A stretch of DNA of 64,000 nt. It comes from an uncultured Acidobacteriota bacterium. Lineage in GTDB: Bacteria; Acidobacteriota; Terriglobia; Acidiferrales; UBA7541. How positions within the stretch are numbered: position 1 is the first letter of the stretch; each line of letters starts with the position of its first letter. Shown piece by piece: positions 4,914 to 37,402 of this stretch. The stretch covers positions 26,011-90,010 of the forward strand of contig CAWDQT010000011.1 in NCBI GenBank assembly GCA_963804535.1, written 5' to 3'. Made by a program: the position numbers and the translations under genes. The notes under the pieces were generated by a model. The model was not told where the DNA came from, searched no databases, and saw only the letters and a program-made list of their open reading frames with translations.

Positions 4914-4943
4914 CGCTTGTCGCACGCGGCCCGCACGCCATCC

Positions 4944-7277
<2,334 letters not shown>

Positions 7278-8815: not shown

Positions 8816-8832
8816 ATAAGCCCTGAATAAGG
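8766..8832. repeat. about 5.5 copies of a 12-nt tandem repeat (gaaggccctaaN) spanning the purF stop and the lepB RBS region
   Basis: The read is 'cgaaggccctaa cgaaggccaaag agaaggccctaa agtaaggccctg aataagccctg aataagg'. It encodes the purF tail 'EGPNEGQREGPKVRP*'. Confidence 0.65.
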
Positions 8833-8840
8833 AAAGTTCC

Positions 8841-9605: not shown

Positions 9606-9715
9606 CCACGGGTAGGCCCAGTTTTGTACCAGTCTCGTAGCCCAGGGTGCGCTCACGATGGCGCTCGAGCGCCTGTGAATGAAGACGTGAGCGCATCCTG
9701 GGGTTTTGTTTGTAG

Positions 9716-9767
9716 GTCGTGGCTTTAGCCACGACATAAGGACCGTGCCCCGGGGCGTTAGCCCCGG
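9716..9767. repeat. two REP-like GC-rich hairpins in the lepB-purM spacer
   Basis: 'gtcgtggct-tt-agccacgac' (9716-9735) and 'ccggggc-gtta-gccccgg' (9750-9767). A partial copy 'tttagccacg' lies at 9601-9610. Confidence 0.5.
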
Positions 9768-9802
9768 TGTAGACTGTCGCCCGTTTCGAGACTCAAGGCT
9801 CA

Positions 9803-21467: not shown

Positions 21468-23354
21468 TTATCGCGAAGACGCGCGGGTCACCGTGTTTTT
21501 CTGGGCCGTGGGCGGCACGATGGCCGGCATGGAATCTTCCCAACGGCTATAGGTGAGCGCGTGCTGGCCGGAACCATCCGCCTTCATGATGAAGATCTGC
21601 GCGAAGGGCTGGAAGGAATTGTCATACAGCGGCGCTTCGTCTTTGAATCCATAGCGCGCGCTGGACCAGAGAATATACTTACCGTCGGGCGACCAGGAAG
21701 AGTGGCTGTCATTCCCCGGCGTGGTGGTCAATCGTTTTACGTCCGTGCCGTCGGGGCGCATGGTGAAGATATCGTAGTCCAGCGTTTTTGCGTCGCGGCG
21801 CGTAAAGGTGAGCAGGTCGCCGCTCGGCGAGTACGCCGGGAAATTATCCAGTTCCGTGGTTAATGTCTTGATCGAGCCGTCGTCAAGATTCAATACACGC
21901 AGGCCGTATTCGCCCGCTCCCCAGACACGGTAGATGATTTTTTTCCCGTCGGGCGACCAGGTCGGGAATCCGCTATTGGGCAGACCCTTGGTGAGATCCT
22001 TGGATTCTTGCGAACCATCGGCCCGCACCATCATCAATTTGGCGGGGGTGGTTTCGCGCGCGCCAAAAAATCCTCCGAATCCGAAAGCGATCCACTGCCC
22101 GTCGGGAGACCATGTGGGCACGAAGGCCGCTCCGTTCTTGTCTGAGAAGACCACTTTCTTGCCGGACCCGTCCGCGTTCATTACAGAGATCGACGCGGTT
22201 GACGTTGTGGCCAGGTTCCTGATGTCGCTGATGGCCAGCTTGCCGTCGCGAGAAAATCTGGGGAAGACGTCGGTGTACTGAATGTCCATATCCGGATCCC
22301 AGCTGTAGAGCGGCTGATTTTGAGGCCGCGCCGTGAAATCCACCTTCTGATAGACCACCTGTTTGCCATCCGGCGACCAGGCCGGATTGCGCACCATCCC
22401 CTTCATTCCCGACTCACCTGAGGTGAAGGCCAGTCCGGCATTCGGCCCGGCCTTGACTAGATATGCGATCTTATCCGCGCTCAAGTATTGCGGTCCTACT
22501 TTCAGACCGGGGCCAGAGGTCTGCTCGACCCTGGCGCCAGTGGCGATATCCACTGAGACAATCTGCGAGGTGACCATCCCCTGCGCGTAAATCCGGGCCG
22601 CGAAGGTATGCGCGGTGGGCACTTCATAAAACACCACGCGCTTGCTATCGGGCGACCACTTTGGCGATCCGGTTGAAACGCCTTCCTTCGTTGTCAATCT
22701 GCGCAAACCCTGGCCGTCCGGATGGATGATGTAGATGCTCAACTCCTGCGGATGCTCCCATCCCGGCTGCGGAAATTCGTGCGGCTTGAAATCAAAATTT
22801 CGGTCCGATGAAAACGCGATCCATTGCCCGTCGGGCGACCAGGCCGGCCGGAAAAAACCGTCCAATTTGCCCGGCCGCGCTTGCAAAGCGGGACCGCCCG
22901 TCAAATTGCGGAGCTTGCGCGTCTTGAGATCCAAAATCCAGATATTGGCGGTATGTGCGCCGCGCGTCGAGACAAAGGCGACCTGATTCCCGTCGGGAGA
23001 AAATGCCGCCTGATCGTCGAGCGTTGGATCGTCAGTGAGGCGCTCGAGTCCCGAGCCATCCACGCGCACGCGATAAAGATCGGCTTGCCCGGAGCCGTTG
23101 CGCTCGGACGTAAACACGATCCATTTACCGTCGGGCGAGAACGATGCGTTGTAGTCGAATCCGGAGGAGGGAAACAGCGGATGTTCGCCGGAGCCATCGG
23201 CATTGGCGATGTAGAGCGTCATCTGGGAGGGCCCCAGACGGTTCATGAGCATGGTTTGCTTGGGCCCGGCATGCAACGATAAGGCGGCCGTGAATGCCAA
23301 GCCGATAGAAAAGGCCACGAACTTCATTTTCATCTTCGTTTTCACTGTTTTCAC
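21468..23354 (-). CDS. TolB-like PD40/WD40 beta-propeller repeat protein, secreted
   Basis: Many 'FSPDGK.I.F.S.R' PD40 repeats. GTG 23354 is 7 nt after GGAGG and gives signal peptide 'KMKMKFVAFSIGLAFTAALSLHA'. Confidence 0.8.
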   Translation of the reverse strand: MKTVKTKMKMKFVAFSIGLAFTAALSLHAGPKQTMLMNRLGPSQMTLYIANADGSGEHPLFPSSGFDYNASFSPDGKWIVFTSERNGSGQADLYRVRVDGSGLERLTDDPTLDDQAAFSPDGNQVAFVSTRGAHTANIWILDLKTRKLRNLTGGPALQARPGKLDGFFRPAWSPDGQWIAFSSDRNFDFKPHEFPQPGWEHPQELSIYIIHPDGQGLRRLTTKEGVSTGSPKWSPDSKRVVFYEVPTAHTFAARIYAQGMVTSQIVSVDIATGARVEQTSGPGLKVGPQYLSADKIAYLVKAGPNAGLAFTSGESGMKGMVRNPAWSPDGKQVVYQKVDFTARPQNQPLYSWDPDMDIQYTDVFPRFSRDGKLAISDIRNLATTSTASISVMNADGSGKKVVFSDKNGAAFVPTWSPDGQWIAFGFGGFFGARETTPAKLMMVRADGSQESKDLTKGLPNSGFPTWSPDGKKIIYRVWGAGEYGLRVLNLDDGSIKTLTTELDNFPAYSPSGDLLTFTRRDAKTLDYDIFTMRPDGTDVKRLTTTPGNDSHSSWSPDGKYILWSSARYGFKDEAPLYDNSFQPFAQIFIMKADGSGQHALTYSRWEDSMPAIVPPTAQKNTVTRASSR

Positions 23355-23514
23355 TTTGGGGCCTCCAGATATGGAGACAGCCTGCACCCGGATGGAATAT
23401 GCGCATTGTACAGCACTCCTTGGCCGTCTGGTGGCAGTGAATCCTGTTCCATTCGCCGACGGCAATGCTGTACACTCTGCCTACTAGAACTCGCCTTGGA
23501 TGGAGGCAATCGCA

Positions 23515-23994
23515 ATGCGAAATCGGCATATTTTGCCAGTGGTTTTGACACTCGGCCTTTTGGTCGCGTCTGCTCCTCTATTCGCACATCACGCGAATGC
23601 CGTTTTTGATACGACGAAAACCGTTACCGTAAAAGGGGCAGTCACAGAATGGTTTTGGGCCAATCCGCATTGCCTTTTGAGGTTCGACGTAACAGACGAC
23701 TCTGGCCAGGTGGCGCATTGGGTCGGGGAGACTCAGGCTCCGATCAATATGATCGGAAACGGCTGGAGACGAGACTCGTTCAAGCCTGGGGATGAAATTA
23801 CCGTCAGTCTCCGGCCACTCCGGAACGGCAGGCCCGGCGGCAGCATTCAATCGGTCGTCCTTGCCGATGGTAAGACACTAAAGGCGGGAGCAGGAACCGA
23901 GTACGTCAAACCGGGCGGGCCGGCGCCCGACGGGGCTCAACCCGATGGAACTCGACCTGAGGGCACCAACCCCGAGGGGAACTCCAAGCCTTAA
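23515..23994 (+). CDS. small secreted protein, DUF6152-like, copy 2
   Basis: Signal peptide ends 'APLFA|HHANAVFD', with 'WANPHCL', 'WVGE' and 'FKPGDEITVS'. The C-terminal tail has four P(D/E)G pentapeptide repeats. Confidence 0.8.
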   Translation: MRNRHILPVVLTLGLLVASAPLFAHHANAVFDTTKTVTVKGAVTEWFWANPHCLLRFDVTDDSGQVAHWVGETQAPINMIGNGWRRDSFKPGDEITVSLRPLRNGRPGGSIQSVVLADGKTLKAGAGTEYVKPGGPAPDGAQPDGTRPEGTNPEGNSKP

Positions 23995-24074
23995 GAGCGC
24001 TCCGCGCGGCAGACTGTGCAAGTGTCGTAGCGTTACCTGAGCGCTTTTGGCGCGCAGCAAGCGAGAAGCGCAAA

Positions 24075-25031
24075 ATGCAAACGGAAAGGCATGTCGCGAT
24101 GTCAACCCGTTTAGGATCTCTCTCAATCACACGTGTGGCGGCATTCGTAATTGCGGCATTGGTCTTCGCGCCTCTCACCCATGCACAGACCGTGGTAATC
24201 CCTTTTACGCGGGAACCAGGAGCGGTCTATGACCCTGACGTTCCGAATGAGAAGCCGGGGCCTGCTCCACGCCGCGATTTGTCCGGCATTTGGGAGCCTG
24301 CCCGCTCGCTGGCGGACGACGTTGGGGCGGATGGGGCGAAAGCAATACCGGCGGATGGAAAGCCGGGCCACGAGCCGCCTTTTACCCCCGAAGGCCAGAA
24401 AGCATACATGGCCACCAAGCCGACCTTCGGCTACAGACAAGTCCCGCCTGTGCAAACAAACGATCCAATGCCTGGATGCGATCCCCAGGGGTTTCCGCGC
24501 GTCGCTCTGCATAACTTCCGAACGAGTTGGATCATCCAGAATCCGAGTAATGTGGTGATTCTGTATGAGTTCAACAAAAAGTGGCGGGTGATCTGGACCG
24601 ACGGGCGCGCGCTCCCCAAGAATGCCGAGGACCCGAGCTGGAGTTATATGCCGGATCTTTCGGAGTCAAGATGGTGGGGATACTCGGTGGGCAAATGGAT
24701 CGATGATTATACGTTTGAAGCCGAGTCGAACGGATTCAACGACAAGACCTGGCTCGATAACGCCGGCCGGCCCCACAGCACCGCTTTGCGCGTGATCGAA
24801 CGCTATCACCGCGTGGACGCAAAACACCTGGAAATGACCATCACAATCGATGACCCGAAGTATTACACGAAGCCCTGGGTCGCTTTGGACCGTTTGTCTT
24901 TGAGATTGCAATCACCCAGCTTCGATTTCTTTGAGCAGGAATGCTCGCCCTCTCAGACCAAGGAATATAACGAATTCTATGGCGAGCCCGCCTCCGAGAA
25001 TTTAGGCAAACCTCCCGACAAAGCCAAGTAG
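24075..25031 (+). CDS. secreted lipocalin-like family protein (short form)
   Basis: 318 aa with 'RRDLSGIWEP', 'FTPEGQ', 'PGCDPQGFP', 'WGYSVGKW', 'GFNDKTWLDNAGRPHSTALRVIERY' and 'DDPKYYTKPW'. Confidence 0.85.
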   Translation: MQTERHVAMSTRLGSLSITRVAAFVIAALVFAPLTHAQTVVIPFTREPGAVYDPDVPNEKPGPAPRRDLSGIWEPARSLADDVGADGAKAIPADGKPGHEPPFTPEGQKAYMATKPTFGYRQVPPVQTNDPMPGCDPQGFPRVALHNFRTSWIIQNPSNVVILYEFNKKWRVIWTDGRALPKNAEDPSWSYMPDLSESRWWGYSVGKWIDDYTFEAESNGFNDKTWLDNAGRPHSTALRVIERYHRVDAKHLEMTITIDDPKYYTKPWVALDRLSLRLQSPSFDFFEQECSPSQTKEYNEFYGEPASENLGKPPDKAK

Positions 25032-25143
25032 GTCTTGGACCCGCTCCCTGTGGATCAGACTGGTCTTAGCGGGTGAGCTTCTCTTGACCTCGACGACGGG
25101 CCGCAGTAGCATCCAGCGAAGCAGCATCCATAAGGTCGATTCA

Positions 25144-25950
25144 ATGCCACGCAAGAATGCGCATGCGTTCGGTTCTTTTCGTGAGCGGACTATCGGATTG
25201 ACCGCGCTCTTGATTGCGCTCGCGTCCGCGGTCTCCATGCGTGCGCAAGCGTCTGCCCCGGCCCAAACCGCAACAACAGAGCCTGCACTGCGCCCGCGCG
25301 ACCTTACAGGTCTATGGTTCGGCGGAGTCGGAGGAGGCTTGCGCGTGAAGGGGACGGTGGCTCCGCTGACGCCGGAGGGCCAGACCAGATTCAATGCCAA
25401 TACCGCGGAACTGAAGAGCGACCGTACCATCAGCGCCGATCCCACCTTTCGCTGCGAGCCGCCCGGCTTGCCGCATATCTACGGGATCGGCGGCTATTCG
25501 ATCGAATTCATGCAGACTCCGGCGCGGATCGTGATCTTCTACGAGTCGATACACACATTTCGCACCATCTGGATGGACGGCCGGAAGCCGCCGCAAGATG
25601 CCGATCCAATGTGGATGGGATTTTCCGTGGGACACTGGGACGGAAACGATCTGGTCGTGGATACAACCGGGTTCAACGACAAAACCTGGCTGAATGGAGC
25701 GGGATATCCACACAGTGAAGCGCTTCACATAATCGAGCGCTTCCATCGCGCCGACGTGAAGCACATGCAACTCGATATCACCATCGACGATCCAAAGTCG
25801 TACACGCAGCCTTGGCATATGGGAATCAATTTCACGCTTCAGCCGACATGGGAGTTTGGGGAATCTTTCTGTATTCCCACGAACCAGGAGAATTTCAAAT
25901 CGGAAATCATTGAGCAAAACGACAAGGACAAACCGGCCCCAAAGAAATAG
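25144..25950 (+). CDS. secreted lipocalin-like family protein (short form)
   Basis: 'RDLTGLW', 'LTPEGQ', 'FRCEPPGLP', 'MGFSVGHWDGNDLVVDTTGFNDKTWLNGAGYPHSEALHIIERF' and 'DDPKSYTQPW'. ATG 25144 is preferred (signal peptide). Confidence 0.85.
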   Translation: MPRKNAHAFGSFRERTIGLTALLIALASAVSMRAQASAPAQTATTEPALRPRDLTGLWFGGVGGGLRVKGTVAPLTPEGQTRFNANTAELKSDRTISADPTFRCEPPGLPHIYGIGGYSIEFMQTPARIVIFYESIHTFRTIWMDGRKPPQDADPMWMGFSVGHWDGNDLVVDTTGFNDKTWLNGAGYPHSEALHIIERFHRADVKHMQLDITIDDPKSYTQPWHMGINFTLQPTWEFGESFCIPTNQENFKSEIIEQNDKDKPAPKK

Positions 25951-25991
25951 TCGCTGGTAATTACTTGTTGCGCGCGAGGAGGTTCCGCGAA

Positions 25992-26420
25992 ATGCACTTC
26001 ACAACGAAGACCAGAGTTCTAGCCTGTTGCGCCGTAGCGGCGCTGGCCGCTATTGGCCCCAGGGCCGTCTTCGCCCATCACGGGTCGGCGGCATACGATA
26101 TGTCCAAATCGCTCACGCTCGATGGCACCGTAACGAGCCTGGACTGGAACAATCCGCATTGCCTGCTTCATTTCGACGCCAAGGATGAGAAAGGCGAAGT
26201 GCAGCACTGGACGATCGAACTTTACAATCCCCTGTGGATGACGCGCGCCGGATGGACACGAACCAGCCTGAAAGCCGGCGACCCGATCAACATCACCTTC
26301 CACGGAACCAAGAGCGGCGCGCCGAATGGCTACATTCGTGACGGCGACGGGAAACTGACCTCGAACGGTAAGGAACTCGCGTTTCATCAGGCCGGAGACG
26401 AGCGAACCACGGAACGCTAG
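25992..26420 (+). CDS. small secreted protein, DUF6152-like, copy 3
   Basis: RBS 'gaggagg'. Signal peptide ends 'PRAVFA|HHGSAAYD', with 'WNNPHCL', 'WTIEL' and 'LKAGDPINITF'. Confidence 0.8.
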   Translation: MHFTTKTRVLACCAVAALAAIGPRAVFAHHGSAAYDMSKSLTLDGTVTSLDWNNPHCLLHFDAKDEKGEVQHWTIELYNPLWMTRAGWTRTSLKAGDPINITFHGTKSGAPNGYIRDGDGKLTSNGKELAFHQAGDERTTER

Positions 26421-26487
26421 CGCCGTCCGCCTCCGTCGCGCTACGGATGGCGGCTAACGATTGAGAAACCTTCGAGGCGAGCGCGTC

Positions 26488-27609
26488 ATGCGCAAATACA
26501 CCGACAAACTGTCTGCCGACCTGCCGAAGCGCGACTCGGATTCTCTCTCGCATTTCCGGACTTCACGGCGGAAGTTTGTCGGGTCCGTTCTCGTCGCCGG
26601 CGCAGGTGCGGTGTTCTCCTCATCCCCGTTTTTGTCGCCATTGAGCGCGCAGAGCACGCCGGCGGTACGCGGTGCAAAGGCGGGACGCATTGATGTCCAC
26701 TATCACCTCACTCCCCCGGCCTTGATTCAGGCGTTTGGGGCAAAGCCGTTCGCAAACGCCGCAAACTCGGCCAACTGGACAATCGAGAACACGCTCATGG
26801 ACATGGAGCGAAACGGAGTGGCTGCGGTCATGTGCTCGATTGCGCCTCAGGCCGATCCCTTCGCGGACGTATCAAAAGCGGTGGGATTGACGCGTGAGTG
26901 CAATGAATACTTCGCTCGGGTTATGACGGATCATCCCGGCCGATTCGGACTATTCGCCTCTGTGCCGCTGCCCAATGTGGATGCCGCGCTCCGCGAGATC
27001 GATTATGCCCTCGGCACGCTCAAGGCCGACGGCATCGCTCTGTTCACCGTCTACGGAGACAAGTGGCTCGGCGATAAGGCGTTCGACCCGATTTTCGAAG
27101 AACTCAACCGCCGCAAGGCGGTTCTCTTCACCCATCCCAACACTGCAAATTGCTGCAGGAATCTTTTGCCCAATATCGCCGAGGGGACGATCGAGTGGGG
27201 CACGGATACTACTCGCGCCATTTCCAATGTGCTGTTCAATGGCACCGCCGCGCGCTGCCCCGACGTTCGTATGATTTTTTCACACGGGGGCGGCACGATG
27301 CCCTATCTGGTCGAGCGCTTCGAGTCGCTGGCTAAGACACCCAAATTTGCCCTGCAATTTCCTGGAGGGTTTGCGCCGGCGGCCGGCAAGTTCTACTACG
27401 ACACGGCGTGGACGACGAATCCCGAAGCGATGTCGGCTCTCAGCAAACTCGTTCCCGTTTCGCAGATCTTGTTCGGAACGGATTTCCCGTATTTAACGGC
27501 CGCGGACCAGATCAGGGATCTGAAAGCGTGTGGCGCATTCAGTGCCGCCGATCTCGAAAAAATCGAGAGCCGGAACGCGCTCCCGCTTTTGCCGCGATTC
27601 AAAGTTTAG
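26488..27609 (+). CDS. Tat-exported amidohydrolase-2 family protein (ACMSD/decarboxylase-like metal hydrolase)
   Basis: Tat motif 'SRRKFVGSVLVAGAGA', 'RIDVHYHL' metal-binding start, 'FSHGGG' and 'GTDFPY'. Confidence 0.78.
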   Translation: MRKYTDKLSADLPKRDSDSLSHFRTSRRKFVGSVLVAGAGAVFSSSPFLSPLSAQSTPAVRGAKAGRIDVHYHLTPPALIQAFGAKPFANAANSANWTIENTLMDMERNGVAAVMCSIAPQADPFADVSKAVGLTRECNEYFARVMTDHPGRFGLFASVPLPNVDAALREIDYALGTLKADGIALFTVYGDKWLGDKAFDPIFEELNRRKAVLFTHPNTANCCRNLLPNIAEGTIEWGTDTTRAISNVLFNGTAARCPDVRMIFSHGGGTMPYLVERFESLAKTPKFALQFPGGFAPAAGKFYYDTAWTTNPEAMSALSKLVPVSQILFGTDFPYLTAADQIRDLKACGAFSAADLEKIESRNALPLLPRFKV

Positions 27610-27627
27610 GTGGAAAGGAAGGTTGCC

Positions 27628-28701
27628 ATGCGTCTAACGCTTCTCTCTTTCGTTGCGATAATCGGCTCGAGTCTGCTTTGCACGCCCGCTTTCAGCCAGG
27701 AGAAAGGTGGGGACGACCGCACCGGTCCCTACGACGCCGTCCAAGGCTGGCCCCACCCATTGCCAGACAAGGGGTACATTTGGGGATCGACCGGTGGCAT
27801 CTTCGCCGAAACGCCCAACAGAATCTTCATTGCTAACCGCGGTGAATTGAAACTGCCGGATAAACTGCCTCGCAATTTCAATGGTTTCTCGGGCTCCCTT
27901 GGGCTGGCGGCCACAGGCCTGGTGCCCGTGTTCAAAAATTGCATCGCCATTGTCGATGCCGACGGCACGCTGATCGAGGCATGGACCCAATGGGATCATC
28001 TTTTCGAGGATGGCCGCGGGCCGCACTCCGTCCTCATCAGTCCTTACGATCCTGAACACAACGTTTGGGTCGTTGACGACATCCATCATCAGGTCTTCAA
28101 ATTCACCAATGATGGCAAGAAGCTGCTCATGACTCTTGGCGTGAGGGACGAACCCGGCAATGACGACAAGCATTTCAAGCGTCCTACCGACATCGCCTGG
28201 CTGCCTGACGGCACATTCTTCATCAGCGATGGTTACGGCAATACGCGCGTCGTAAAATTCGACAAGAACGGAAAGTTTCTGCTGACTTGGGGAACACCGG
28301 GCACGGGGAATAGCCAGTTCAACACGCCGCATTCGATCACCGTCGACCGCAATCGCCGCGTGTACGTCTCCGATCGGGCCAACAACCGCGTTCAGGTCTT
28401 CGATGAGAATGGCAAGTACCTCGACCAGTTTCCCAATATCGCGCAGCCTTACCACATTCGCATTAGCAACGATGGTTACCTGTGGGCCTTTTCGGGTCCG
28501 CTCGATAAATTCTTGAAATACGATCTGCAGGGCCATCTGTTGTATGCCTGGGGCACACACGGCACCGAGCCGGGCCTGTTCTGGGCCGTTCACCAATTTT
28601 CGTCAGACAGCGAGGGCAATCTCTATACCGCCGAAGTTTTCGGAGGGCGGCCACAGAAGTTCCGCCCGCGAGCCCGGAGCCGACCCGTCGCATTTTTTTA
28701 A
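27628..28701 (+). CDS. NHL-repeat six-bladed beta-propeller (PAL-like), secreted, paralogue of 19324..20370
   Basis: 'HQVFKFTNDGKKLLMTLG', 'TRVVKFDKNGKFLLTWG' and 'NNRVQVFDENGKYLDQF'. The stop lies in a T7 run, so the true end might be 28735. Confidence 0.8.
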   Translation: MRLTLLSFVAIIGSSLLCTPAFSQEKGGDDRTGPYDAVQGWPHPLPDKGYIWGSTGGIFAETPNRIFIANRGELKLPDKLPRNFNGFSGSLGLAATGLVPVFKNCIAIVDADGTLIEAWTQWDHLFEDGRGPHSVLISPYDPEHNVWVVDDIHHQVFKFTNDGKKLLMTLGVRDEPGNDDKHFKRPTDIAWLPDGTFFISDGYGNTRVVKFDKNGKFLLTWGTPGTGNSQFNTPHSITVDRNRRVYVSDRANNRVQVFDENGKYLDQFPNIAQPYHIRISNDGYLWAFSGPLDKFLKYDLQGHLLYAWGTHGTEPGLFWAVHQFSSDSEGNLYTAEVFGGRPQKFRPRARSRPVAFF

Positions 28702-28770
28702 GCAAGTGCCGCTCATGCCGAAGAAATCGAGTTGAGCTGCCGGTCGATCGTTGAAGAAGGAGAGAACCAT

Positions 28771-29292
28771 ATGGCTAAGCGAAATCTGCCGTTGCTGCTC
28801 ATCTTTACTCTAGCTCTGCCGGTAATCTCACGCGCCCAGGCAATGCCAAACTTCTCCGGAAACTGGAAACTCGCCCAGATCGAGCCACCCGTCGATCCCC
28901 GAAACGGCCGCCCGCCGTCCGCCGGTGGTGGCCTGGGCGGAGGTGGAGACGCGGACAATGCCTATGGGGCGAGCATCCGCGAAATTTTTGCTCAAGCGCC
29001 GCAGACGATCATGATCACGCAGACAGCGAACCAAATCGCCGTACAAATTGGATCGGAAAAAGAGTCTTATACGCTGGATGACAAGCAAACGGTGACTCCG
29101 GCCGGCGATCCCAACGCCTTGAAGACTTGGGCGCACTGGGACGGAACGAAGCTGCACCTGCACTTCAAAAAAGGAATGAACTGGGGCAGGGACATCCTCA
29201 GCTTGAGCGATGGAAAACTCGTCGTGCTGCGCGATGTTGAATCGGGTGGCGGATCGACGACTTTTAGCATTACGTACTCCAAGACCGAGTGA
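28771..29292 (+). CDS. small secreted lipocalin-like protein (mini version of the expanded family)
   Basis: 173 aa with signal peptide 'LALPVISRAQA'. 'PNFSGNWKL' and 'AHWDGTKLHLHF' echo 'PNFSGIWEA' and 'GHWDGDTLVVDV' of the larger paralogues. Confidence 0.7.
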   Translation: MAKRNLPLLLIFTLALPVISRAQAMPNFSGNWKLAQIEPPVDPRNGRPPSAGGGLGGGGDADNAYGASIREIFAQAPQTIMITQTANQIAVQIGSEKESYTLDDKQTVTPAGDPNALKTWAHWDGTKLHLHFKKGMNWGRDILSLSDGKLVVLRDVESGGGSTTFSITYSKTE

Positions 29293-29352
29293 ATAATTCC
29301 TCGCTCAATATTTCAGAAATCCGCAGAGCGTGTTTCGAGCTAGGTCTCGTAG

Positions 29353-30201
29353 ATGGATAAATCGACCCTTTTATTGGCTGCGATCATACTGGCTGTGTTC
29401 GGGGCTTCTGTCGCAGCCGGTCATCCCCACTGGGGCACGTTCACCGGCATCGCCATCATTCTGCTGGCCGCGGGCCTTGGGGCTGGAACGCTACCGCTTC
29501 GCTCACAGGATTTTGTCGAAGAGCGAACAAGCCCCACCCAGAGAATCTCGAACGGCCTGATTACCTTGAGTTCCGCCGCCATCGTTGCTATCTACGCTGC
29601 GGGCTATCACCGAACGAGTCCTGCGGCGCATCGGTTTGATTCGCAGATACCGCAGCAGAGAACGTCCGCTACGATTGCGATCGCGACACCTCCACCCGCT
29701 GCAAACCCAGGCTCCTCCGCGGCTCCGCCGGTTTCGTCTTCTGCGGCTCCTGCGAGCAAGAAAAATACCAAGAGGCCTTCGACTCCGTCTCGCAAAGCGG
29801 CGCCTAGTAGCGCCAGCGATTCAGCAGGGTCATCCTCCGCACCATCGCCGGCGTCAGCGACTAATCCGCCTATCGAAGCGGCCGCGCCGCCTGCGGGCGC
29901 AGCAAAGAGCGCGTACAAAGACGGCGTCTACTTGGGATGGGGCAGTTGCCGTCACGGTGATATCGAAGCATCCGTTACGATTCAGGACGGCAAGATCGCT
30001 CTCGTCGCGATTTCGCAATGCCTGACGCGCTACTCCTGCGGTTGGATCGCGCCAAAAATTCCGGGCGCCGGATTGCCCGACTTACCCTCACAGGTGGTCG
30101 AAAGGCAGGGCCCGAAGGTCGATTACGTCTCAGGAGCCACTGAGAGCAGCTATGCATTCGCTGATGCAGTCGTCGCAGCACTATCCAAAGCCACAGAGTA
30201 A
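29353..30201 (+). CDS. membrane-anchored FMN-binding domain protein (RnfG/NqrC-like) with flavinylation motif
   Basis: Three N-terminal TM helices, a P/S/A-rich linker, then an FMN_bind-like domain ending 'KVDYVSGATESSYAF'. The S-G-A-T motif is at nt 30130-30141. Confidence 0.8.
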   Translation: MDKSTLLLAAIILAVFGASVAAGHPHWGTFTGIAIILLAAGLGAGTLPLRSQDFVEERTSPTQRISNGLITLSSAAIVAIYAAGYHRTSPAAHRFDSQIPQQRTSATIAIATPPPAANPGSSAAPPVSSSAAPASKKNTKRPSTPSRKAAPSSASDSAGSSSAPSPASATNPPIEAAAPPAGAAKSAYKDGVYLGWGSCRHGDIEASVTIQDGKIALVAISQCLTRYSCGWIAPKIPGAGLPDLPSQVVERQGPKVDYVSGATESSYAFADAVVAALSKATE

Positions 30202-31136
30202 CGAGGTCGTCCGCACCGTCGCCCTGATGGGTACCTTTGTGACGATCCACGTCGTGGGCCATGTAGTGGGAGACATGGCCGGTCACAAAGGGGAGACGGA
30301 GAGGACTGAGCGCGAGCGAGCGGTCGACCGCGCGCTTGATTGGTTTTACAAAATTGAGGAATGTTGCACGCGATTCGAGTCCAGCAGCGAAGTGATGCGG
30401 CTCGCGACCCAGGTGGGCGTGCCCGTTCCAGTCAGCACGATCCTTTTCGAAGCGGTGCAATTCGCGTTGGCCGTAGCGGAAGCAACTGAAGGCGCGTTCG
30501 ATCCGACGGTCGGCTACGCCATGGAATCGCTCGGTTTCAATCGCGAATACCGCACCGGTCAAACGATCCGAACTCCTCTCGATTCCAATTTCCCTGTCAG
30601 CTACCGGGATGTTCGCCTCGACGCGGAAGGCCAGACGATCACCTTGCATCGTCCGCTGATTCTTGATCTTGGCGCCGTCGCGAAGGGGTTGGCGGTTGAT
30701 CTCGCCGCACGCGAGCTTCAATCGTTCAAAAATTTTGCGATCAACGCGGGTGGCGATCTCTATCTCGGAGGATGCAATCCCAGTGGCGAGCCATGGTCCG
30801 ATCGGAATCCGCCATCCGCGAAACGATGGGGAATTGATTGATTCGATCCGAGTCTCAAACCGCGCCGTCTGCACCTCAGGCGACTACGAAAAACGGGCGA
30901 ACGACGAGCAAGGCCATCATATTCTCGATCCGCGCACAGGATCGTCAGCCAACGCCGTGGCCAGCGTGACGGTTATCGCACTTACAGCGATGCTGGCCGA
31001 TGCGCTCGCAACGGCCGCTTTCGTTCTGGGTCCGTCTGATGGGATTCAACTATTCCATCGTTTGGGCGTGGATGGGCTGATCATTTCCCCGACCCTGGAA
31101 CTATATGCAACTCGAGGGTTCCGTGAGTACCACTAG
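30152..31136 (+). CDS. apbE: FAD:protein FMN transferase (ApbE), frameshifted as sequenced
   Basis: 'VALMGTFVTI', 'AFDPTVG' and 'LDLGAVAKGLAVD' in ORF 30152..30841. 'IGIRHPR...AVCTSGDYE...HILDPRTG' lies in ORF 30663..31136. They join at 'GEPWS|IGIRHP' if the extra C near 30799 is removed. Confidence 0.82.
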
Positions 31137-31944
31137 CTCTGCGATTTGGCGATTCTTTCAGACGCCCAAGGGTCTTCTCATCATCGTGCTGGTGATTCTG
31201 GTTGCGGTAGCCGCCCCGCACGAGGGGATCGCATTAGTAGCGCCCGGTCTCGCAACTGCGGTTTTGGTCGCTAGTGCGATCGACGTGCTGATTCTCCGAA
31301 AAATTCGAGGCGCCTGGGAATTTCCCAGTGGCGCAGTTCTCACGGGTCTGATTGTTGCAATGATATTGACTCCACAGGAGCCTTGGTACGTCACCGCTTG
31401 CACCTCGGCCATAGCGATTGCGAGTAAGTACGTCGCCCGGACTCGCTCGGCCAACATCTTTAATCCGGCCGCACTGGCTCTGGTTGCTACCTTTTACATT
31501 TTCAATACGGGACAGAGTTGGTGGGGCGCCTTGCCTGAAATTTCACCCTACGCTCTGATCGTGCTTGTGGCGACCGGCGCGTTCATCGCGGATCGCGTCA
31601 ACAAGATTCCCTTGGTTCTCGTTTTCCTGTTTACCTACTTTGGGCTATTTACGCTCACGAGCTTCGCCGGCGATCCGGGAAAGGTCGCCGAAATGTTTCG
31701 CGCGCCCGATCTCCACGCCGTGCTCTTCTTTGCGTTCTTCATCTTGACCGATCCGCCAACTTCGCCCGTGAGGTATCCCGATCAGATTGTGTGCGGAGTG
31801 CTTGTCGCCTTGGCCAGTTACGCGACCTTTGAGTGGGTGGGTGCGGCCCATTATCTTCTTGCGGGCGTTCTCGTCGGCAACATCTGGGAAGCTTGGCACC
31901 GCTCGCAATTTTTGCGCCGGCGCGTGCCGTCGCCGGCCACATAG
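31105..31944 (+). CDS. RnfD/NqrB-like polytopic membrane protein (short, without its own SGAT site)
   Basis: 279 aa with 'SGAVLTGLIVAMILTP', 'NIFNPAALALV' and 'FFILTDPPTSP', which resemble conserved RnfD/NqrB blocks. Confidence 0.65.
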   Translation: MQLEGSVSTTSSAIWRFFQTPKGLLIIVLVILVAVAAPHEGIALVAPGLATAVLVASAIDVLILRKIRGAWEFPSGAVLTGLIVAMILTPQEPWYVTACTSAIAIASKYVARTRSANIFNPAALALVATFYIFNTGQSWWGALPEISPYALIVLVATGAFIADRVNKIPLVLVFLFTYFGLFTLTSFAGDPGKVAEMFRAPDLHAVLFFAFFILTDPPTSPVRYPDQIVCGVLVALASYATFEWVGAAHYLLAGVLVGNIWEAWHRSQFLRRRVPSPAT

Positions 31945-31978
31945 CGGCAAAGCACGAAGCAGGGAAGCAAAGCGTTCC

Positions 31979-32455
31979 CTACGAAAATCCGATCCAGCGC
32001 CCGCCGATTCCTACACCCGCCCACAGCAAGACCGAAACCACTGCCACTACTTTGCTCCAAACGGGGCTCACTCGAGTCTCGTCGGTCATGGTCACTTTGC
32101 GTTGGATTGTAAAAGTGAAGACGATCGCCAGAAACAGACACGACATCTTGAACCAAAAGGCGTCATGGTAATAACACTTGATCGCTTCGGAGAGGAAGAG
32201 CAGGCCACCCGTGATGATCATTAATACGAGGCTGCCGACGAGCCAGGGCTGCGCGTTGCGAGTGAGCTCTGCGGCGGACTGCCGCTTCAATCCAAGACCT
32301 AAGAGACGCATGTCCACAACCAACACCGCTCCCCCGATCACTCCCAGGCCAAGGAGGTGAATTGCCTCGATCACCGGAAATAACCAGGATGACTTTCGGA
32401 TCGTTTCGCCGATTCCCGAAGCTTCGCACCACTGAAAGAAGGCCAGCAGCGACAT
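31979..32455 (-). CDS. 4-TM membrane protein, function unknown (DUF6644/CopD-like?)
   Basis: ATG 32455 overlaps the upstream stop (TAATG). 'WLFPVIEAIHLLGLGVIGGAVLVVDMRLLG' is paralogous to the upstream gene. Confidence 0.7.
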   Translation of the reverse strand: MSLLAFFQWCEASGIGETIRKSSWLFPVIEAIHLLGLGVIGGAVLVVDMRLLGLGLKRQSAAELTRNAQPWLVGSLVLMIITGGLLFLSEAIKCYYHDAFWFKMSCLFLAIVFTFTIQRKVTMTDETRVSPVWSKVVAVVSVLLWAGVGIGGRWIGFS

Positions 32456-33120
32456 TAGTGTTCCGCCTGGGTTGGCACGCAACTGGTGAGGAAATTAACG
32501 ATCGCCGGTTGCGGCTGCCTATCGCAGTCGAACCAGTTATACGCGATCATTCTTCCCGAAAGAACGATGCAGACCCATAGCACCAGCGAAAGCGCGCCGG
32601 CAACTCTGGCTGCCTTGGGCGTTACATTATCCACATCCCACGTTGTCACCCGGCGATAAACGCCCGAATGAAAGATCCACACGTTCAGGCCCGCCAGCAA
32701 CAGCATGATCATTTTGGCGCGGAAGAAAATATTCTGATAGGAGCGCAGCGGTATGGCCGAAAACAGGAGCGTTCCACTGATGACCATGACGACGAATCCA
32801 ACTGCGGTCCAAGGCAGCAGGCGCCGGGCAACTTCGGATACGGGCACGCTCTTCATCGTCCAGCCGAGGAGGCGGAAATCGAACATCACGGCCAAGCCGA
32901 AGAATAGGCACAGCGCCCATACATGGACCGATTCGATCAGGTCGTAAGCATAGCGGGATTCGTGCAGGCCGGTGCTCCACGATGAATCGCCCATCCGTTG
33001 GAAGAAATCGAGAAGGGTCCCTCCGATCCCGCCGCCTCCTTCATTACTTTCGTTGGCAGCCGACTGCAATGATGCTGCGTCGAATGGGCCGCTCGCGAAA
33101 AATTGGCCAGGCGCGCCCAT
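32455..33120 (-). CDS. 4-TM membrane protein, paralogue of 31979..32455, function unknown
   Basis: 'YAYDLIESVHVWALCLFFGLAVMFDFRLLG'. It may extend to ATG 33272 (signal-like 'MKRVLIGLFCILTLALC') if an indel lies near 33120. Confidence 0.65.
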   Translation of the reverse strand: MGAPGQFFASGPFDAASLQSAANESNEGGGGIGGTLLDFFQRMGDSSWSTGLHESRYAYDLIESVHVWALCLFFGLAVMFDFRLLGWTMKSVPVSEVARRLLPWTAVGFVVMVISGTLLFSAIPLRSYQNIFFRAKMIMLLLAGLNVWIFHSGVYRRVTTWDVDNVTPKAARVAGALSLVLWVCIVLSGRMIAYNWFDCDRQPQPAIVNFLTSCVPTQAEH

Positions 33121-33403
33121 TTTTCGGAGCCAGGGTCCGGCGGAATCAAGTGGATGTGAACTGCCGCTTCACTCGACCTCTGTACTCTGTAGGCGGCTTG
33201 AGTAGGCGAGGTCACCAAATAGCAGAGAGCCAACGTCAAAATACAGAAGAGCCCGATCAGAACGCGCTTCATTTGGAAATTCGTTCTTATCCGATTTCAA
33301 GCATTGGGGATCCACTCATGCGCAATCCCGAGCGTAAACAAGGAAAAGGCTGCGCGGATCGGGTACGATCCGCGCGCCAATGCAAACGCGGGCGCCGCGT
33401 CCG

Positions 33404-33856
33404 TTATTTCTTGCTCTCCGGCGACAACTCGTATGGCGCGCCGGTTCCGGACGAGCCGAGGAACAGTTTTCGCCCATCAGGGAACGTAAGATCCCTGCCG
33501 TTGGCTCGGTGCGACCCGTCTTTCGCCTGGTATCCATCGACCACCACTTCGGTGCCGGGCAGCAGGGATTCCTTGGTGAACCCGCGCCGGAAAAGGACGT
33601 TCGGCGTGCCCGCTTCGACGGCCCAGTTCTCAACCGTGCCATCGGGCTTCTTCACGTCGACGTGCATCCAGGTGTGGGGATTTACCCATTCCATTTTCGT
33701 GATGGTCCCCTTGAAACTCACCGGTTTATTCGCGTCGAACTCCGCCGCAAACGCGTGGTGCGCCGAGACTGACGCCGCACCTCCCAGGATTGCGAAACCC
33801 ACGACGGCGACTACCGTTGCAATTTTCGTTCGCATCGACTTCAGCCTCCTCCGCAT
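33404..33856 (-). CDS. small secreted protein, DUF6152-like, copy 4
   Basis: Signal peptide ends 'AASVSA|HHAFAAEFD', with 'WVNPHTW', 'WAVEA' and 'LLPGTEVVVDG'. Confidence 0.8.
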   Translation of the reverse strand: MRRRLKSMRTKIATVVAVVGFAILGGAASVSAHHAFAAEFDANKPVSFKGTITKMEWVNPHTWMHVDVKKPDGTVENWAVEAGTPNVLFRRGFTKESLLPGTEVVVDGYQAKDGSHRANGRDLTFPDGRKLFLGSSGTGAPYELSPESKK

Positions 33857-33924
33857 GTAGAACCAAAATGAACCGGGCCCGCGGCGGCTCGACTATCCCG
33901 AATCAGGATAAGCGGCGTCCGCCC

Positions 33925-34911
33925 CTATTGCTTACCGCCGTACCACTCATAGAACTTATCACCGGACGGCACCTTGCGGGTGATATCGACCGCCATGGTT
34001 TCGCCTTCCCAGTGCTTCACCAACTGCTGCTTGCGAAGACCTCCGTACATGAACTCTTCGACGAATTCATTGCAGCGAAACTCGAGAAGCTGCATGTTCG
34101 GTTCCACGCGGCGATAGAGCGGCATGGCGATCCGCCAGGGCCGCGTAAAAACCTTCGGGTCTTCGATCGTCACTTCGTAACGAATGATATCAGGCGACAT
34201 CAGCGTGAAGCGCTCGGTAAGGTGCAGCGCGTCGCTATGGAAATTGCCGGCGCGGTCAAACCAGCTGCGGTCGTTGAAATTTGTGACGTCGACGACGAGC
34301 GTGTCTCCATCCCAATGTCCGACGGAGTGGCCCATCCAGGTGTCATCGGGCGGCCCTGCGACCTTGTCCAAATGGATCGTGCGCGCCGTATTCGAGAATT
34401 CGTAGGCCATGTGAATCTTGTTCGTGCCTTGCGTGATCTGGAAGGGATAAGGCATGTACATCGCGCGCGGAATGCCCGGCAGGTAACACTTCAGTTCCGG
34501 GTCGCGGTCAATCCAATGTTCCGCGTTGTCTTTCTTCATCAGCAAAGCTTCCGGCTTGTAGGGGATTTGCCCGTCGCCCTGCACCACGCCGAGCGATCCG
34601 GGTACCGCGCCCGCGGCGCCCAGCGCGAGAACCGGAGCTGCGGGCACTCGCGCGTAGTCGTAAGGATAAACGCCCGGCTGCGTGACTGCGGCGGGAAGCG
34701 CCGCATGCGCCTGCAAATCCCAGTTGGCCTCGTTATTGGCTTCCCAGATGCCGCTGAAGTTAGGCTTGCCGCCGACGCGGGCTGGCCGCGCCGCGGGAGC
34801 GGCCGGAGCCTGAGCCGACGTGCGCGTGATGGACACGGAGACGATCGCGCCGACTGCAGCCGCGGCAATGGCGACCGTTATCATCGAACCTGAGAATCGG
34901 CCGCGCATCAT
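33925..34911 (-). CDS. secreted lipocalin-like family protein (short form)
   Basis: 328 aa with 'KPNFSGIWEA', 'LKCYLPGIPR', 'MGHSVGHWDGDTLVVDVTNFNDRSWFDRAGNFHSDALHLTERF' and 'EDPKVFTRPW'. Confidence 0.88.
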   Translation of the reverse strand: MMRGRFSGSMITVAIAAAAVGAIVSVSITRTSAQAPAAPAARPARVGGKPNFSGIWEANNEANWDLQAHAALPAAVTQPGVYPYDYARVPAAPVLALGAAGAVPGSLGVVQGDGQIPYKPEALLMKKDNAEHWIDRDPELKCYLPGIPRAMYMPYPFQITQGTNKIHMAYEFSNTARTIHLDKVAGPPDDTWMGHSVGHWDGDTLVVDVTNFNDRSWFDRAGNFHSDALHLTERFTLMSPDIIRYEVTIEDPKVFTRPWRIAMPLYRRVEPNMQLLEFRCNEFVEEFMYGGLRKQQLVKHWEGETMAVDITRKVPSGDKFYEWYGGKQ

Positions 34912-34935
34912 GTCCTCCTCTTGCTCCTGTCGTCG

Positions 34936-36171
34936 CTACTGCAACGGATCGTCTTCGACGCCCACAAAATCCGTGGCGTTGTCGCTTATTCCCGGGTCGG
35001 GACCTTGTCCCTCCGCAAAGGCGGCCTCTGCCATGCGCTGTCCGCGCATCAAGCCCGGGGAAGCATAGTTTCCTTCGATGCAGCGAGGCTCGTAATAAAT
35101 TCGGTTCTCCTGCTCGCTCTGCCTGGTGAACTCCTGCTTGACGGTCCATGGCCGCGTCCACACGGTCGGATCTTCGATCGTGACCACGTATTCGAGCGTG
35201 TTCGGCCCGGTGCGCGTCCAGCGCTCCACCAGGTGCAGGTTTTCCCGCGAACCCTGGTAATCGGTCTTTGGACTGAAGTTCGTCACGTCGATGACCAGCG
35301 TGTTGCCTTCCCAGTGACCGCGCGAATCGCCATACCACTGGCGGATATTGGCCGGCAAGTGCGGGCTTCCGTTCATAACGATATTTCGCTGCCAGCCTTG
35401 TCCCTGACCGACGTCGTAGAACATCGAGATGCCGCCGGGCGTCTGCACAATGCGGCGGAAGCTGCCGGTCGCGCCTCCGAATTCGGGCAGCCCGCCGGTC
35501 AGGCAGCGGTCCGGCAACGCGCCATCCTCCGGATTATCACGGCGATTCATGCGCGCCGTGTTGTAGCGGGGAGGAGGCTCGGCAAATCGCGGCGAGGGCG
35601 TCGGATCGTATTTCCCGCCGGCACATGCCACCGACTTGTTCTTGCAAGTCTGCGTCGCTTGCAGCAGTGCGAGACGAAATTCCCGCTCGGCGGCGGCCAT
35701 CTTCTGTGCCTCCGGCGTGAGCGGCGGGATTCGGCCGTTGGGCGGATCCACAATCAGCGACGTCCGCGCACCGGTGTGCTTGACGGACATAAACTGCGCG
35801 TTATAGGCGCCGGCGACGTCGAGCTCGGTGCCGCGCTCCACACGCCTGTCCCGGCCGAGCAGCGCCGCTCGTTCTTTGTCCAATTCGGCCCGCTGCGCTT
35901 CGGTGAAAAATTCCTGGTTCGCATACTTGGGAGAGCGCTGCAACGGCGTGTCCGATTCGTCGGTCCAGATGCCTTGCAGATCCGGTTCACCCCACGGCGT
36001 TTTCAGCGCTGGAGCTGTCGCCGACGACTTCGCTGAAGCAGTGTGCGCCGTTGCGGAAGCCGTTTGAGTCTGCGCCGACGTACGCGTGATGGATACGGAA
36101 ATGATCGCGCCGGCCGCAGCCGCGGCAATGGCGAGAGTTATCATGGAGCGTGAAAACCGGTCGCGCATCAT
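34936..36171 (-). CDS. secreted lipocalin-like family protein (long form), tandem copy 2
   Basis: Start ATGATG 36171 after 'aggagg'. 'LKTPWGEPDLQGIW', 'YGDSRGHWEGNTLVIDVTNFSPKTDYQGSRENLHLVERW' and 'EDPTVWTRPW'. It ends 'SDNATDFVGVEDDPLQ'. Confidence 0.88.
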   Translation of the reverse strand: MMRDRFSRSMITLAIAAAAAGAIISVSITRTSAQTQTASATAHTASAKSSATAPALKTPWGEPDLQGIWTDESDTPLQRSPKYANQEFFTEAQRAELDKERAALLGRDRRVERGTELDVAGAYNAQFMSVKHTGARTSLIVDPPNGRIPPLTPEAQKMAAAEREFRLALLQATQTCKNKSVACAGGKYDPTPSPRFAEPPPRYNTARMNRRDNPEDGALPDRCLTGGLPEFGGATGSFRRIVQTPGGISMFYDVGQGQGWQRNIVMNGSPHLPANIRQWYGDSRGHWEGNTLVIDVTNFSPKTDYQGSRENLHLVERWTRTGPNTLEYVVTIEDPTVWTRPWTVKQEFTRQSEQENRIYYEPRCIEGNYASPGLMRGQRMAEAAFAEGQGPDPGISDNATDFVGVEDDPLQ

Positions 36172-36196
36172 CTCCTCCTGAATCTTCCGCGATGCC

Positions 36197-37402
36197 TCAC
36201 TGCAACGGATCGTCTTCAACGCCGACAAAGTCCGTGGCATTGTCACTTAACGCCGGATCAGGACCTTTCCCCTGCGCAAAGGCGCGGTCTGCCATACGCG
36301 CTGACAGCATCAGCGAGGGGAGAGCATAGTTTCCTTCGACGCAGCGCGGCTCGTAATAAATTTTGTTTTCCTGCTCGCTCTGCTTGGTGAACTCTTGCTT
36401 GACGGTCCACGGCCGCGTCCACACGGTCGGATCTTCGACGGTGACCACGTATTCGAGCGTGGTTGGCCCCTTTCGCGTCCAGCGTTCGACCAGATGCAGG
36501 TTCTCGCGCGAGCCCCGAAAGTCCGTTTTCGGGCTGAAGTTCGAAACGTCGATCACGAGCGTATTGCCTTCCCAATGGCCGCGCGAATCGCCAAACCACT
36601 GGCGGATGCTCGGCGGCAAGTGCGGGCTTCCATTCATGACGATGTTTCGCTGCCAGCCTTGCCCCTGGCCGACATCGTAGAACATCGCGATGCCGCCCGG
36701 CGTCTGCACGATTCGGCGGAAGCTCCCACCGTAGGCTGTTCCAAATTCGGGCAACCCGCCGGTCAGGCAACGGTCCGGCAACGCTCCGTCCTCCGGCCCA
36801 TCGTGGCGATTCATGCGTGCCGTGTTGTAGCGAGCGGGAAGCTCGGCGCGGCGCGTCGAAGGCGTGGGATCGTATTTGCCGCCTTCACAGGCCACCGACT
36901 TGTTCTTGCAGGTTTCGGTAGATTGCAGCAAGGCGAGACGTAACGCCCGGTCCGCAGCGGCAATCTTCTGCGCCTCCGGCGTCAGCGGCGGAATCCGGCC
37001 GTTCGGCGGATCGACAATCAGCGACGTGCGCACGCCCGTGCGCTTGATGGACATAAACGCCGCATTATACGCGCCGGCGACGTCGAGCTCTGTGCCGCGC
37101 TCCACGCGCTTATCGCGCCCGAGCAGCGCCGCTCGCTCTTTATCCAATTCGGCCCGTTGCGCCTCGGTGAAAAATTCCTGGTTCGCATACTTGGCGGGAC
37201 GCTGTAAGGGAGTGTCGGATTCGTCCATCCAAATGCCCTGCAGATCCGGTTCGCCCCACGGCGTTTTCAGCGTTGGGGCTGCCGCCGTCGCGGAAGCCGT
37301 CGGACCCTCTTGCGCGACCGTCACCTGCGCCGGTTTCAAAAACACGAGTGCCGACATGATCGCGGCCAGCGCCACGATGGACTTTAAGAGCCGAGTGCGC
37401 AT
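36197..37402 (-). CDS. secreted lipocalin-like family protein (long form), tandem copy 1
   Basis: 401 aa, roughly 85% identical by eye to 34936..36171, with the same C-terminus 'SDNATDFVGVEDDPLQ'. Confidence 0.88.
   Translation of the reverse strand: MRTRLLKSIVALAAIMSALVFLKPAQVTVAQEGPTASATAAAPTLKTPWGEPDLQGIWMDESDTPLQRPAKYANQEFFTEAQRAELDKERAALLGRDKRVERGTELDVAGAYNAAFMSIKRTGVRTSLIVDPPNGRIPPLTPEAQKIAAADRALRLALLQSTETCKNKSVACEGGKYDPTPSTRRAELPARYNTARMNRHDGPEDGALPDRCLTGGLPEFGTAYGGSFRRIVQTPGGIAMFYDVGQGQGWQRNIVMNGSPHLPPSIRQWFGDSRGHWEGNTLVIDVSNFSPKTDFRGSRENLHLVERWTRKGPTTLEYVVTVEDPTVWTRPWTVKQEFTKQSEQENKIYYEPRCVEGNYALPSLMLSARMADRAFAQGKGPDPALSDNATDFVGVEDDPLQ

Follow-up and report, generated by a model that had tools for sequence, protein, structure and literature searches.

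Among described systems, the locus studied here comes closest to the 'NQR/RNF-like' class defined by Méheust et al. 2021 (eLife, PMC8238504), which combines ApbE and an FMN_bind protein of the NqrC/RnfG kind with a membrane domain of the NqrB/RnfD kind that is fused to an NAD-binding domain of the NqrF type (PF00175), and which was found in 127 genomes, mainly of Actinobacteria and of the candidate phyla radiation. Huang et al. 2024 (mSystems, PMC11334425) describe its membrane domain as devoid of a flavinylated threonine and predict an intimate docking of the NqrC-like subunit, the flavin mononucleotide (FMN) of which would reach the flavin site of the membrane subunit. We have analysed a stretch of 64,000 nucleotides (the window) from contig CAWDQT010000011.1 of an uncultured Acidobacteriota bacterium (assembly GCA_963804535.1). 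On its + strand, three genes encoding an FMN_bind protein (29353..30201), ApbE (30152..31136) and a short RnfD/NqrB-like membrane protein (31105..31944) most likely form a tight, self-standing and conserved operon, which is referred to below as the trio.

The trio shares with the NQR/RNF-like class a two-subunit core made of an anchored NqrC/RnfG-like FMN_bind protein and an NqrB/RnfD-like membrane protein, the presence of apbE in the cluster (PF04205 and PF02424 are adjacent in the window), a PF03116 membrane domain whose fold is confirmed by a structural model, the lack of a flavinylated threonine in this membrane subunit and the absence of the other Nqr/Rnf subunits. It differs from the class by a membrane protein that ends at residue 279 and contains PF03116 only, with no C-terminal PF00175, by an ApbE that has no signal peptide, and by its hosts, which are Acidobacteriota. 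Because the PF00175 fusion that defines the class is missing, the trio is, judging from its sequences, a variant of the NQR/RNF-like class and not a member of it. The first-pass annotation of this DNA had presented the combination as an undescribed system, a view that has to be given up since the closest type is already published (PMC8238504, PMC11334425). Within five genes on either side of the trio there is no key gene of any of the nine remaining systems of Méheust et al. 2021, and none that would define a NapH-like, MsrQ-like, PepSY or DsbD system; together with the missing PF00175 fusion, this therefore leaves the trio unassigned in the 2021 scheme. Our literature search yielded no paper on a stand-alone short RnfD-like protein associated with ApbE, the term 'RnfD-like' being encountered only in Huang et al. 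2024.

A protein of the fused type (P0195), which carries FAD_binding_6 and NAD_binding_1 domains and is 41% identical to the RnfD-like protein of the window, is encoded at 4347-6637 of locus L086, directly after the genes of a Zip metal transporter and of a Dioxygenase_C protein; neither ApbE nor FMN_bind was flagged near it on this 8-kb contig. A tblastn search with its C-terminal domain left the window and 79 of the 80 loci that we compared without a hit and yielded a single distant match, so that a separately encoded NAD-binding partner resembling ferredoxin-NADP+ reductase (FNR) was rejected. No NAD-binding domain being encoded nearby, NAD(P)H therefore cannot be the direct donor.

In Na+-NQR, an NADH:quinone oxidoreductase that translocates Na+, the output branch of the electron path runs from FMN(NqrC) to FMN(NqrB), then to riboflavin(NqrB) and finally to ubiquinone. 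With this enzyme the trio has in common the NqrB fold, the riboflavin-ligating residues and an NqrC-like partner with an SGAT site, whereas the flanking genes encode none of NqrA, D, E and F and the covalent-FMN loop of NqrB is gone. Protein families were assigned with Pfam, and NCBIfam was used for further scoring; the NCBIfam NqrB model NF002181 gives only 20.5 bits against a cut-off of 792. The comparison with Rnf is similar: RnfD is the best structural match of the membrane protein and RnfG is also a transmembrane (TM)-anchored FMN_bind protein, whereas none of the five genes on either side encodes RnfA, B, C or E, about 67 residues comprising the FMN loop are deleted, and the scores remain far below the cut-offs (35.8 bits against 207 for TIGR01946 rnfD, and 32.3 against 400 for NF041838). 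The absence of Rnf and Nqr partners noticed by the first-pass annotation is thus upheld, none of the key Rnf or Nqr genes lying within five genes on either side. As regards ApbE, the cytoplasmic form that acts on a soluble fumarate reductase in Klebsiella pneumoniae (review: PMC12052999) also has no signal peptide and is also encoded with its presumed target. That target is a soluble cytoplasmic enzyme, whereas in the trio it is a membrane-anchored NqrC-like protein accompanied by an RnfD-like subunit.

Conservation of the trio

The FMN_bind protein (282 residues; PF04205, 29 bits against a cut-off of 22) and the RnfD/NqrB-like protein (279 residues; PF03116, NQR2_RnfD_RnfE, 54.3 bits against 27.7) are both recognised by Pfam, which bears out their initial gene calls as well as those of the amidohydrolase with a twin-arginine translocation (Tat) signal and of the NHL propeller encoded further upstream. 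Relatives of the RnfD-like protein were found in 306 species genomes when one genome per species was scanned in a pattern-limited way, and the best 80 of these 306 species loci were fetched. Thousands of close homologues exist in metagenomes, and a library of 1.84 billion proteins contains 159 cluster representatives with E < 1e-30. With few exceptions, the 80 fetched loci come from Acidobacteriota (group 2, Terriglobia, Bryobacterales, Vicinamibacterales and Acidiferrales), a phylum that ranks among the most abundant bacteria of soil.

In essentially all 80 loci the gene immediately upstream of the RnfD-like one is apbE, which in 78 of them is itself directly preceded by an FMN_bind open reading frame (ORF). 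Since it recurs in essentially all of these species-level loci, the arrangement is far beyond chance. The distance between the FMN_bind stop codon and the conserved 'MGT' of ApbE is 17-53 nt in 71 loci, a spacing that would fit translational coupling. In two loci (L004 and L005), the trio stands isolated between divergent or convergent genes. An all-against-all clustering of the neighbouring ORFs of the fetched loci revealed no family that adjoins the trio in more than 16 of them, and the top neighbour families (paralogues of 288-436 residues, DUF6152, NHL and TonB-type barrels) are rich in paralogues. It is because the adjacency of FMN_bind and ApbE, the flavinylation motif and the spacing are kept across the loci that we consider nucleotides 29353-31944 as most likely representing one operon. 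The minimal module consisting of FMN_bind, ApbE and a short RnfD-like protein without the other Rnf/Nqr subunits, already put forward from the DNA alone, is strongly conserved across the 80 loci.

The RnfD/NqrB-like membrane subunit

A first AlphaFold2 (AF2) model, built with 12 sequences at least 74% identical, reached a predicted local distance difference test (pLDDT) value of 51 and was discarded; the calculation was repeated with 72 diverse sequences and gave a pLDDT of 94.6 and a predicted template modelling score (pTM) of 0.91. The best PDB matches of this model in Foldseek are RnfD and NqrB, with TM-scores of 0.62-0.70: the RnfD matches 8rbq_D, 9eri_D and 8ahx_D score 0.67-0.70, and 7xk6_B is among the NqrB matches. 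Urea transporters and Amt/Rh proteins come far lower (0.43-0.51). On the RnfD of A. vinelandii (8ahx_D), residues 58-144 of the window protein align with 57-145 and residues 142-256 with 213-329, and the stretch that matches RnfD 146-212, about 67 residues long, is gone. The deleted segment is the loop that bears the covalent FMN in RnfD and NqrB. A direct reading of the 279 residues shows no [ST]GA[ST] motif, and the place of the lost loop, on the periplasmic side, is taken by GQSWWGALP (31510-31536, + strand), the most conserved motif of the RnfD-like proteins.

The second flavin site of this fold is preserved. In V. cholerae NqrB, a central riboflavin located on the cytoplasmic side is held by T162, N200, N203 and D346 (PMC9325719). 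These four residues align with T80, N117, N120 and D216 of the window protein, none of which varies across the 12 aligned sequences of close homologues. The Arg/Lys-rich N-terminal extensions found in this family suggest a cytoplasmic N-terminus, and a cytoplasmic C-terminus is likewise suggested by the nature of the C-terminal additions of two homologues, a zinc ribbon (P0154) and the NAD-binding fusion of P0195. The tail of P0154 is Cys-rich and of CxxC type ('CTVCKDRGGCPHCGGSG...CRICRGQGWCPVCHK').

Other homologues (P0126 at 2132-3589 of L087, P0171 at 2917-4356 of L088, and also P0123, P0212 and P0245) are extended at the C-terminus by one more TM helix and, after it, by an exported domain that is rich in Thr and Ser and for which no Pfam match was obtained. 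The gene order is the same in L087 and L088, where the RnfD-like gene lies downstream of a signal-less ApbE and a short anchored ORF stands ahead, a Pfam FMN_bind match being recorded for L088 only. A 76% identical homologue (P0095) bears the Joint Genome Institute name 'enediyne biosynthesis protein E5', which suggests that the nearest KEGG orthologue group of the short RnfD-like proteins is that of the enediyne E5 membrane protein.

The FMN_bind protein

At its N-terminus the FMN_bind protein has three TM helices, which a Pro/Ala/Ser linker connects to the FMN_bind domain at the C-terminus. Only the third helix is conserved throughout the family, distant homologues having a single one; the lineage of the window has thus two extra helices ahead of the conserved anchor, and the TM helices are uncleaved. 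The flavinylation motif DYVSGATES is encoded at 30121..30147 (+ strand; residues 257-263 are DYVSGAT), and its SGAT core lies exactly at 30130-30141, where the first-pass annotation had placed it. The pattern D..[ST]GA[ST] is conserved in 66 of the 78 FMN_bind ORFs, the variants among the orthologues being DxVGGAT and DYVSRAT. Thr263 (codon 30139-30141) is the predicted acceptor of a covalent FMN.

The charges flanking the conserved anchor (net +1.85 against +0.97, N-in being favoured in 34 loci and disfavoured in 19) point weakly to an N-in/C-out insertion of the NqrC type, and the six Lys/Arg residues of the N-terminal tail in L087 clearly favour N-in there. The domain itself contains a Cys pair, 'QCLTRYSC' (C-x5-C, 30016..30039, + strand), which was delineated in a 78-sequence alignment and is preceded by a conserved 'RHGD' (29950-29961, + strand). 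The 'RHGD' and 'C.TRY.C' elements (29947-30039 in the window, residues 199-229) are nearly invariant in this FMN_bind subfamily. The region of the Cys pair replaces a loop of the solved FMN_bind domain 8p2a, and the pair is absent from the distant variant L088. Its two cysteines could be joined in a disulfide or act as a redox-active dithiol close to the flavin. The Cys pair and the long Pro/Ala/Ser tether would suit an exported domain, and we infer that the FMN_bind domain would face the periplasm.

ApbE

The assignment of the second gene to the ApbE family is confirmed by Pfam; the single intact ORF initially reported is not, the match to PF02424 being split into two pieces of 106 and 96 bits. 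Positions 1-171 of the Pfam model are found in the frame 30152-30841 and positions 173-262 in the frame 30663-31136. The break is caused by one extra base at 30799..30800 (+ strand, TGGTCCGATCGG in the window against TGGTCC-ATCGG in relatives), which DNA alignment and the blastn list of indels show to be absent from L001, L006 and L007, whose DNA is about 91% identical. Its deletion in silico restores an ApbE of 327 residues, and the intact proteins of the relatives have 318-354 residues. A second isolated insertion of one nucleotide, at 28671 (CGCG[A]GCC, compared with the same three loci), is found at the 3' end of the NHL gene and alters the last residues of the NHL protein. Because of this second insertion, we hold an assembly indel to be as likely as a true pseudogene, and the two together suggest indel errors in this assembly. 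L008, a long-read genome, has breaks in FMN_bind as well as in apbE (8225-10000), with two ApbE pieces and no SGAT in an open frame; these breaks look like the indel noise of such assemblies. The catalytic His is kept in the window, 'GHHILDP' aligning with 'YSHIIDP' of the V. cholerae protein (6nxi), in which H257 is the catalytic residue.

ApbE has no signal peptide and no hydrophobic N-terminus in any of the approximately 80 loci, nor in the two distant variant trios of L087 and L088, and in several loci at most 8 codons separate the upstream in-frame stop from the conserved 'MGT'. The N-terminal lipoprotein or Sec signal of the classical periplasmic lipoprotein form of ApbE is thus missing, and the label of 'extracytoplasmic flavinylation' given initially to the locus is not supported, ApbE being signal-less in all these loci. 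An FMN_bind-ApbE fusion arising by frameshift or read-through, which would export ApbE, was ruled out, since all three frame relations between the two genes occur (in 41, 25 and 5 loci) with a variable overlap. The export of a pre-flavinylated FMN_bind protein by the Tat pathway was also rejected: the residues before the anchor are KK, RK, QR or RR, with no conserved twin arginine. In an apparent ApbE-RnfD-like fusion (P0222) the ApbE sequence is garbled, and this protein was set aside.

Proposed mechanism and alternative readings

The model we propose, which as a whole we hold with moderate confidence, is that the trio constitutes a minimal Nqr/Rnf-like flavoprotein membrane complex. ApbE would attach FMN to Thr263 of the anchored NqrC/RnfG-type FMN_bind protein. 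The flavinylated protein would then dock on the short NqrB/RnfD-type subunit, which has lost the covalent-FMN loop and kept the riboflavin pocket of the cytoplasmic side. Electrons would pass between the tethered FMN and the non-covalent flavin of the pocket, a step equivalent to the stretch of Na+-NQR between FMN(NqrC) and riboflavin(NqrB). Since the published type's NAD(P)H-binding domain is lacking, the complex would probably connect, on the inner side, with the quinone pool or with a protein whose gene lies elsewhere. Several observations weigh against this model. The apbE gene of the window is frameshifted; no electron donor is encoded nearby, neither the window nor 79 of the 80 loci having an FNR-like domain; and an ApbE without export signal, faced with an FMN_bind anchor resembling the N-in/C-out anchor of NqrC, leaves the flavinylation topologically unexplained. 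In addition, the gap of 60 nt before the FMN_bind gene still permits co-transcription with the upstream genes in the lineage of the window.

In an alternative reading the module would face the cytoplasm, the FMN_bind anchor being inserted N-out/C-in, its domain flavinylated in place by the signal-less ApbE and its FMN inserted into the riboflavin pocket of the RnfD-like protein; the complex would then connect a cytoplasmic donor with the quinone pool, with no transmembrane transfer. The few codons available before the 'MGT' of ApbE leave no room for a signal peptide; the cytoplasmic ApbEs of Klebsiella serve cytoplasmic targets (PMC12052999), the riboflavin pocket of NqrB is on the cytoplasmic side (PMC9325719), and most homologues have positive residues ('Y.RT[RK]') after the anchor helix. 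We nevertheless find this arrangement rather unlikely, as the flanks of the anchor favour N-in on balance, and clearly so in L087, the architecture matches that of the periplasmic NqrC and RnfG, and the most conserved RnfD-like motif, GQSWWGALP, sits in the place of the periplasmic FMN loop; related RnfD-like proteins carry an extra TM helix and an exported domain, and the nearly invariant Cys pair and the long tether fit an exported domain. A further reading, which we regard as distinctly improbable, would give ApbE a role beyond maturation: it would be a permanent cytoplasmic subunit of a three-protein complex, in place of the NAD(P)H-binding domain of the fused type, and would feed flavin or electrons into the riboflavin pocket or flavinylate the NqrC-like domain through the RnfD-like subunit. 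This proposal leans on a presumed translational coupling of apbE on both sides in every locus. If it were true, the trio would be a complete, previously unrecognised minimal transmembrane flavin wire, widespread in soil Acidobacteriota. Very little credit can be given to a role outside redox chemistry, in which the RnfD-like protein would be a channel or a part of flavin trafficking with a fold of the Amt/urea-transporter type and the ApbE-like protein a pyrophosphatase of flavin adenine dinucleotide (FAD). Foldseek does retrieve urea transporters and Amt/Rh proteins, at the lower scores given above, and some proteins of the ApbE family are FAD pyrophosphatases (PMC4436053); the adjacent FMN_bind protein, however, conserves its flavinylation motif, the catalytic His of the transferase is retained, and so are the four riboflavin ligands, riboflavin filling the centre of NqrB and leaving no through-channel (PMC9325719).

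The model of a self-standing complex has also to be weighed against a broader one, in which ten genes would act as one functional unit and the trio would pass electrons through the membrane to the products of the upstream DUF6152, amidohydrolase and NHL genes, these exported proteins being the redox clients imagined in the first-pass annotation. The ten co-directional ORFs of the + strand are indeed all present. Their short spacing holds, with remeasured distances of 0-80 nt from ORF to ORF or overlaps of 50 and 32 nt. The seven products of the upstream block (23500..29292: DUF6152, a 318-residue protein, a 288-residue protein, DUF6152, Tat Amidohydro_2, NHL and a 186-residue protein) all possess general secretory (Sec) or Tat signals, and the order is kept in L001, L006, L007, L008, L013 and L080. 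The trio moreover lies within an island of about 25 kb containing at least four DUF6152 genes and at least eight paralogues of a family of 288-436 residues, and published flavinylation clusters often adjoin metal-handling genes (PMC8238504). The linkage, however, does not extend below an identity of about 82% for the RnfD-like protein: the block is found next to the trio in no loci but the six just named, all with at least 82% identity, whereas in L010 (86%) and L011 (80%) the trio and the downstream block are retained and the upstream DNA differs, the gene upstream of the trio being divergent in L010. The trio is present without these genes in about 70 other species, and the upstream genes of 59 more distant loci are spread over 87 Pfam families, none of which occurs in more than 4 loci, which further weakens the notion of clients. 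Some adjacency is also to be expected from the richness in paralogues of the DUF6152 and 288-436-residue families. Beyond domains of unknown function, the upstream proteins display no Pfam or NCBIfam sign of a redox or metal-binding role, and no significant match among PDB sequences was obtained for the first DUF6152 protein or for the 318-residue protein, the only one of the 318-, 288- and 186-residue set to be compared. The synteny search that had been suggested as a check therefore upholds the trio, in essentially all 80 loci, and confines the ten-gene link to close relatives. We consider the ten-gene unit unlikely. The seven upstream genes are most likely neighbours acquired in one Acidobacteriota lineage and not an obligatory part of the system, and the placement of the trio in a DUF6152 island may reflect a local recruitment. 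Caution is thus required with the story of a trio powering the neighbouring DUF6152 proteins, which rests on synteny in one narrow lineage; judged from the loci compared, a functional link is unsupported beyond it.

The trio operon occurs in hundreds of species genomes, largely of soil Acidobacteriota, and is left unassigned by the scheme of Méheust et al. 2021, whose class is defined by the NAD-binding fusion. Stripped down to an Nqr/Rnf core of NqrC-like and NqrB-like subunits only, it could be a simple model for the flavin-to-flavin step of Na+-NQR and Rnf. It raises two questions: what feeds or accepts the electrons without an NAD(P)H domain, and how does an ApbE devoid of export signal modify a domain that looks periplasmic?

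Upstream genes and surrounding island

A scan of 23000-33500 for promoters and terminators found 1 promoter-like site for 4.3 expected and 14 terminator-like sites for 11.4 expected, and is uninformative on the boundaries of operons; an Rfam search of the whole window gave no match, and thus no FMN riboswitch. In the upstream block, the two DUF6152 proteins (23500-23994 and 25965-26420, + strand) both begin with a signal sequence followed by 'FAHH' and both score 94.9 bits with PF19649, the third copy, encoded downstream of the trio, scoring 113 bits, against a gathering cut-off of 27. The Amidohydro_2 protein (26461-27609, + strand) carries the twin-arginine motif 'TSRRKFVGS' and is followed by the NHL propeller (27610-28701, + strand). 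The 318- and 288-residue proteins are paralogues; like the 186-residue protein, they have no Pfam or NCBIfam match, and the name 'lipocalin-like' first attached to these proteins remains a guess.

Downstream, the trio meets a convergent block (31979..36246, - strand) that encodes, according to Pfam, two DUF6644 membrane proteins and the third DUF6152 protein, together with paralogues of 328 and 436 residues. This block adjoins the trio in L006-L011, L013 and L080, including the relatives that do not have the upstream block (L010 and L011). The tandem DUF6644 genes (31979-33120, - strand) could encode a membrane partner of the DUF6152 modules. The assimilation of DUF6152 and DUF6644 to a copper pair of the CopC/CopD type was dropped, no Pfam match to it appearing even at E values up to 10, and our literature search found no paper that mentions DUF6152. 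The island as a whole extends from 14981 to 39875 and includes DUF6152 genes starting at 14981, 23500, 25965 and 33407, as well as the paralogues of the unannotated exported family of 288-436 residues, which are located on both strands at 16475, 24075, 25084, 33928, 34939, 36329, 37686 and 38673.

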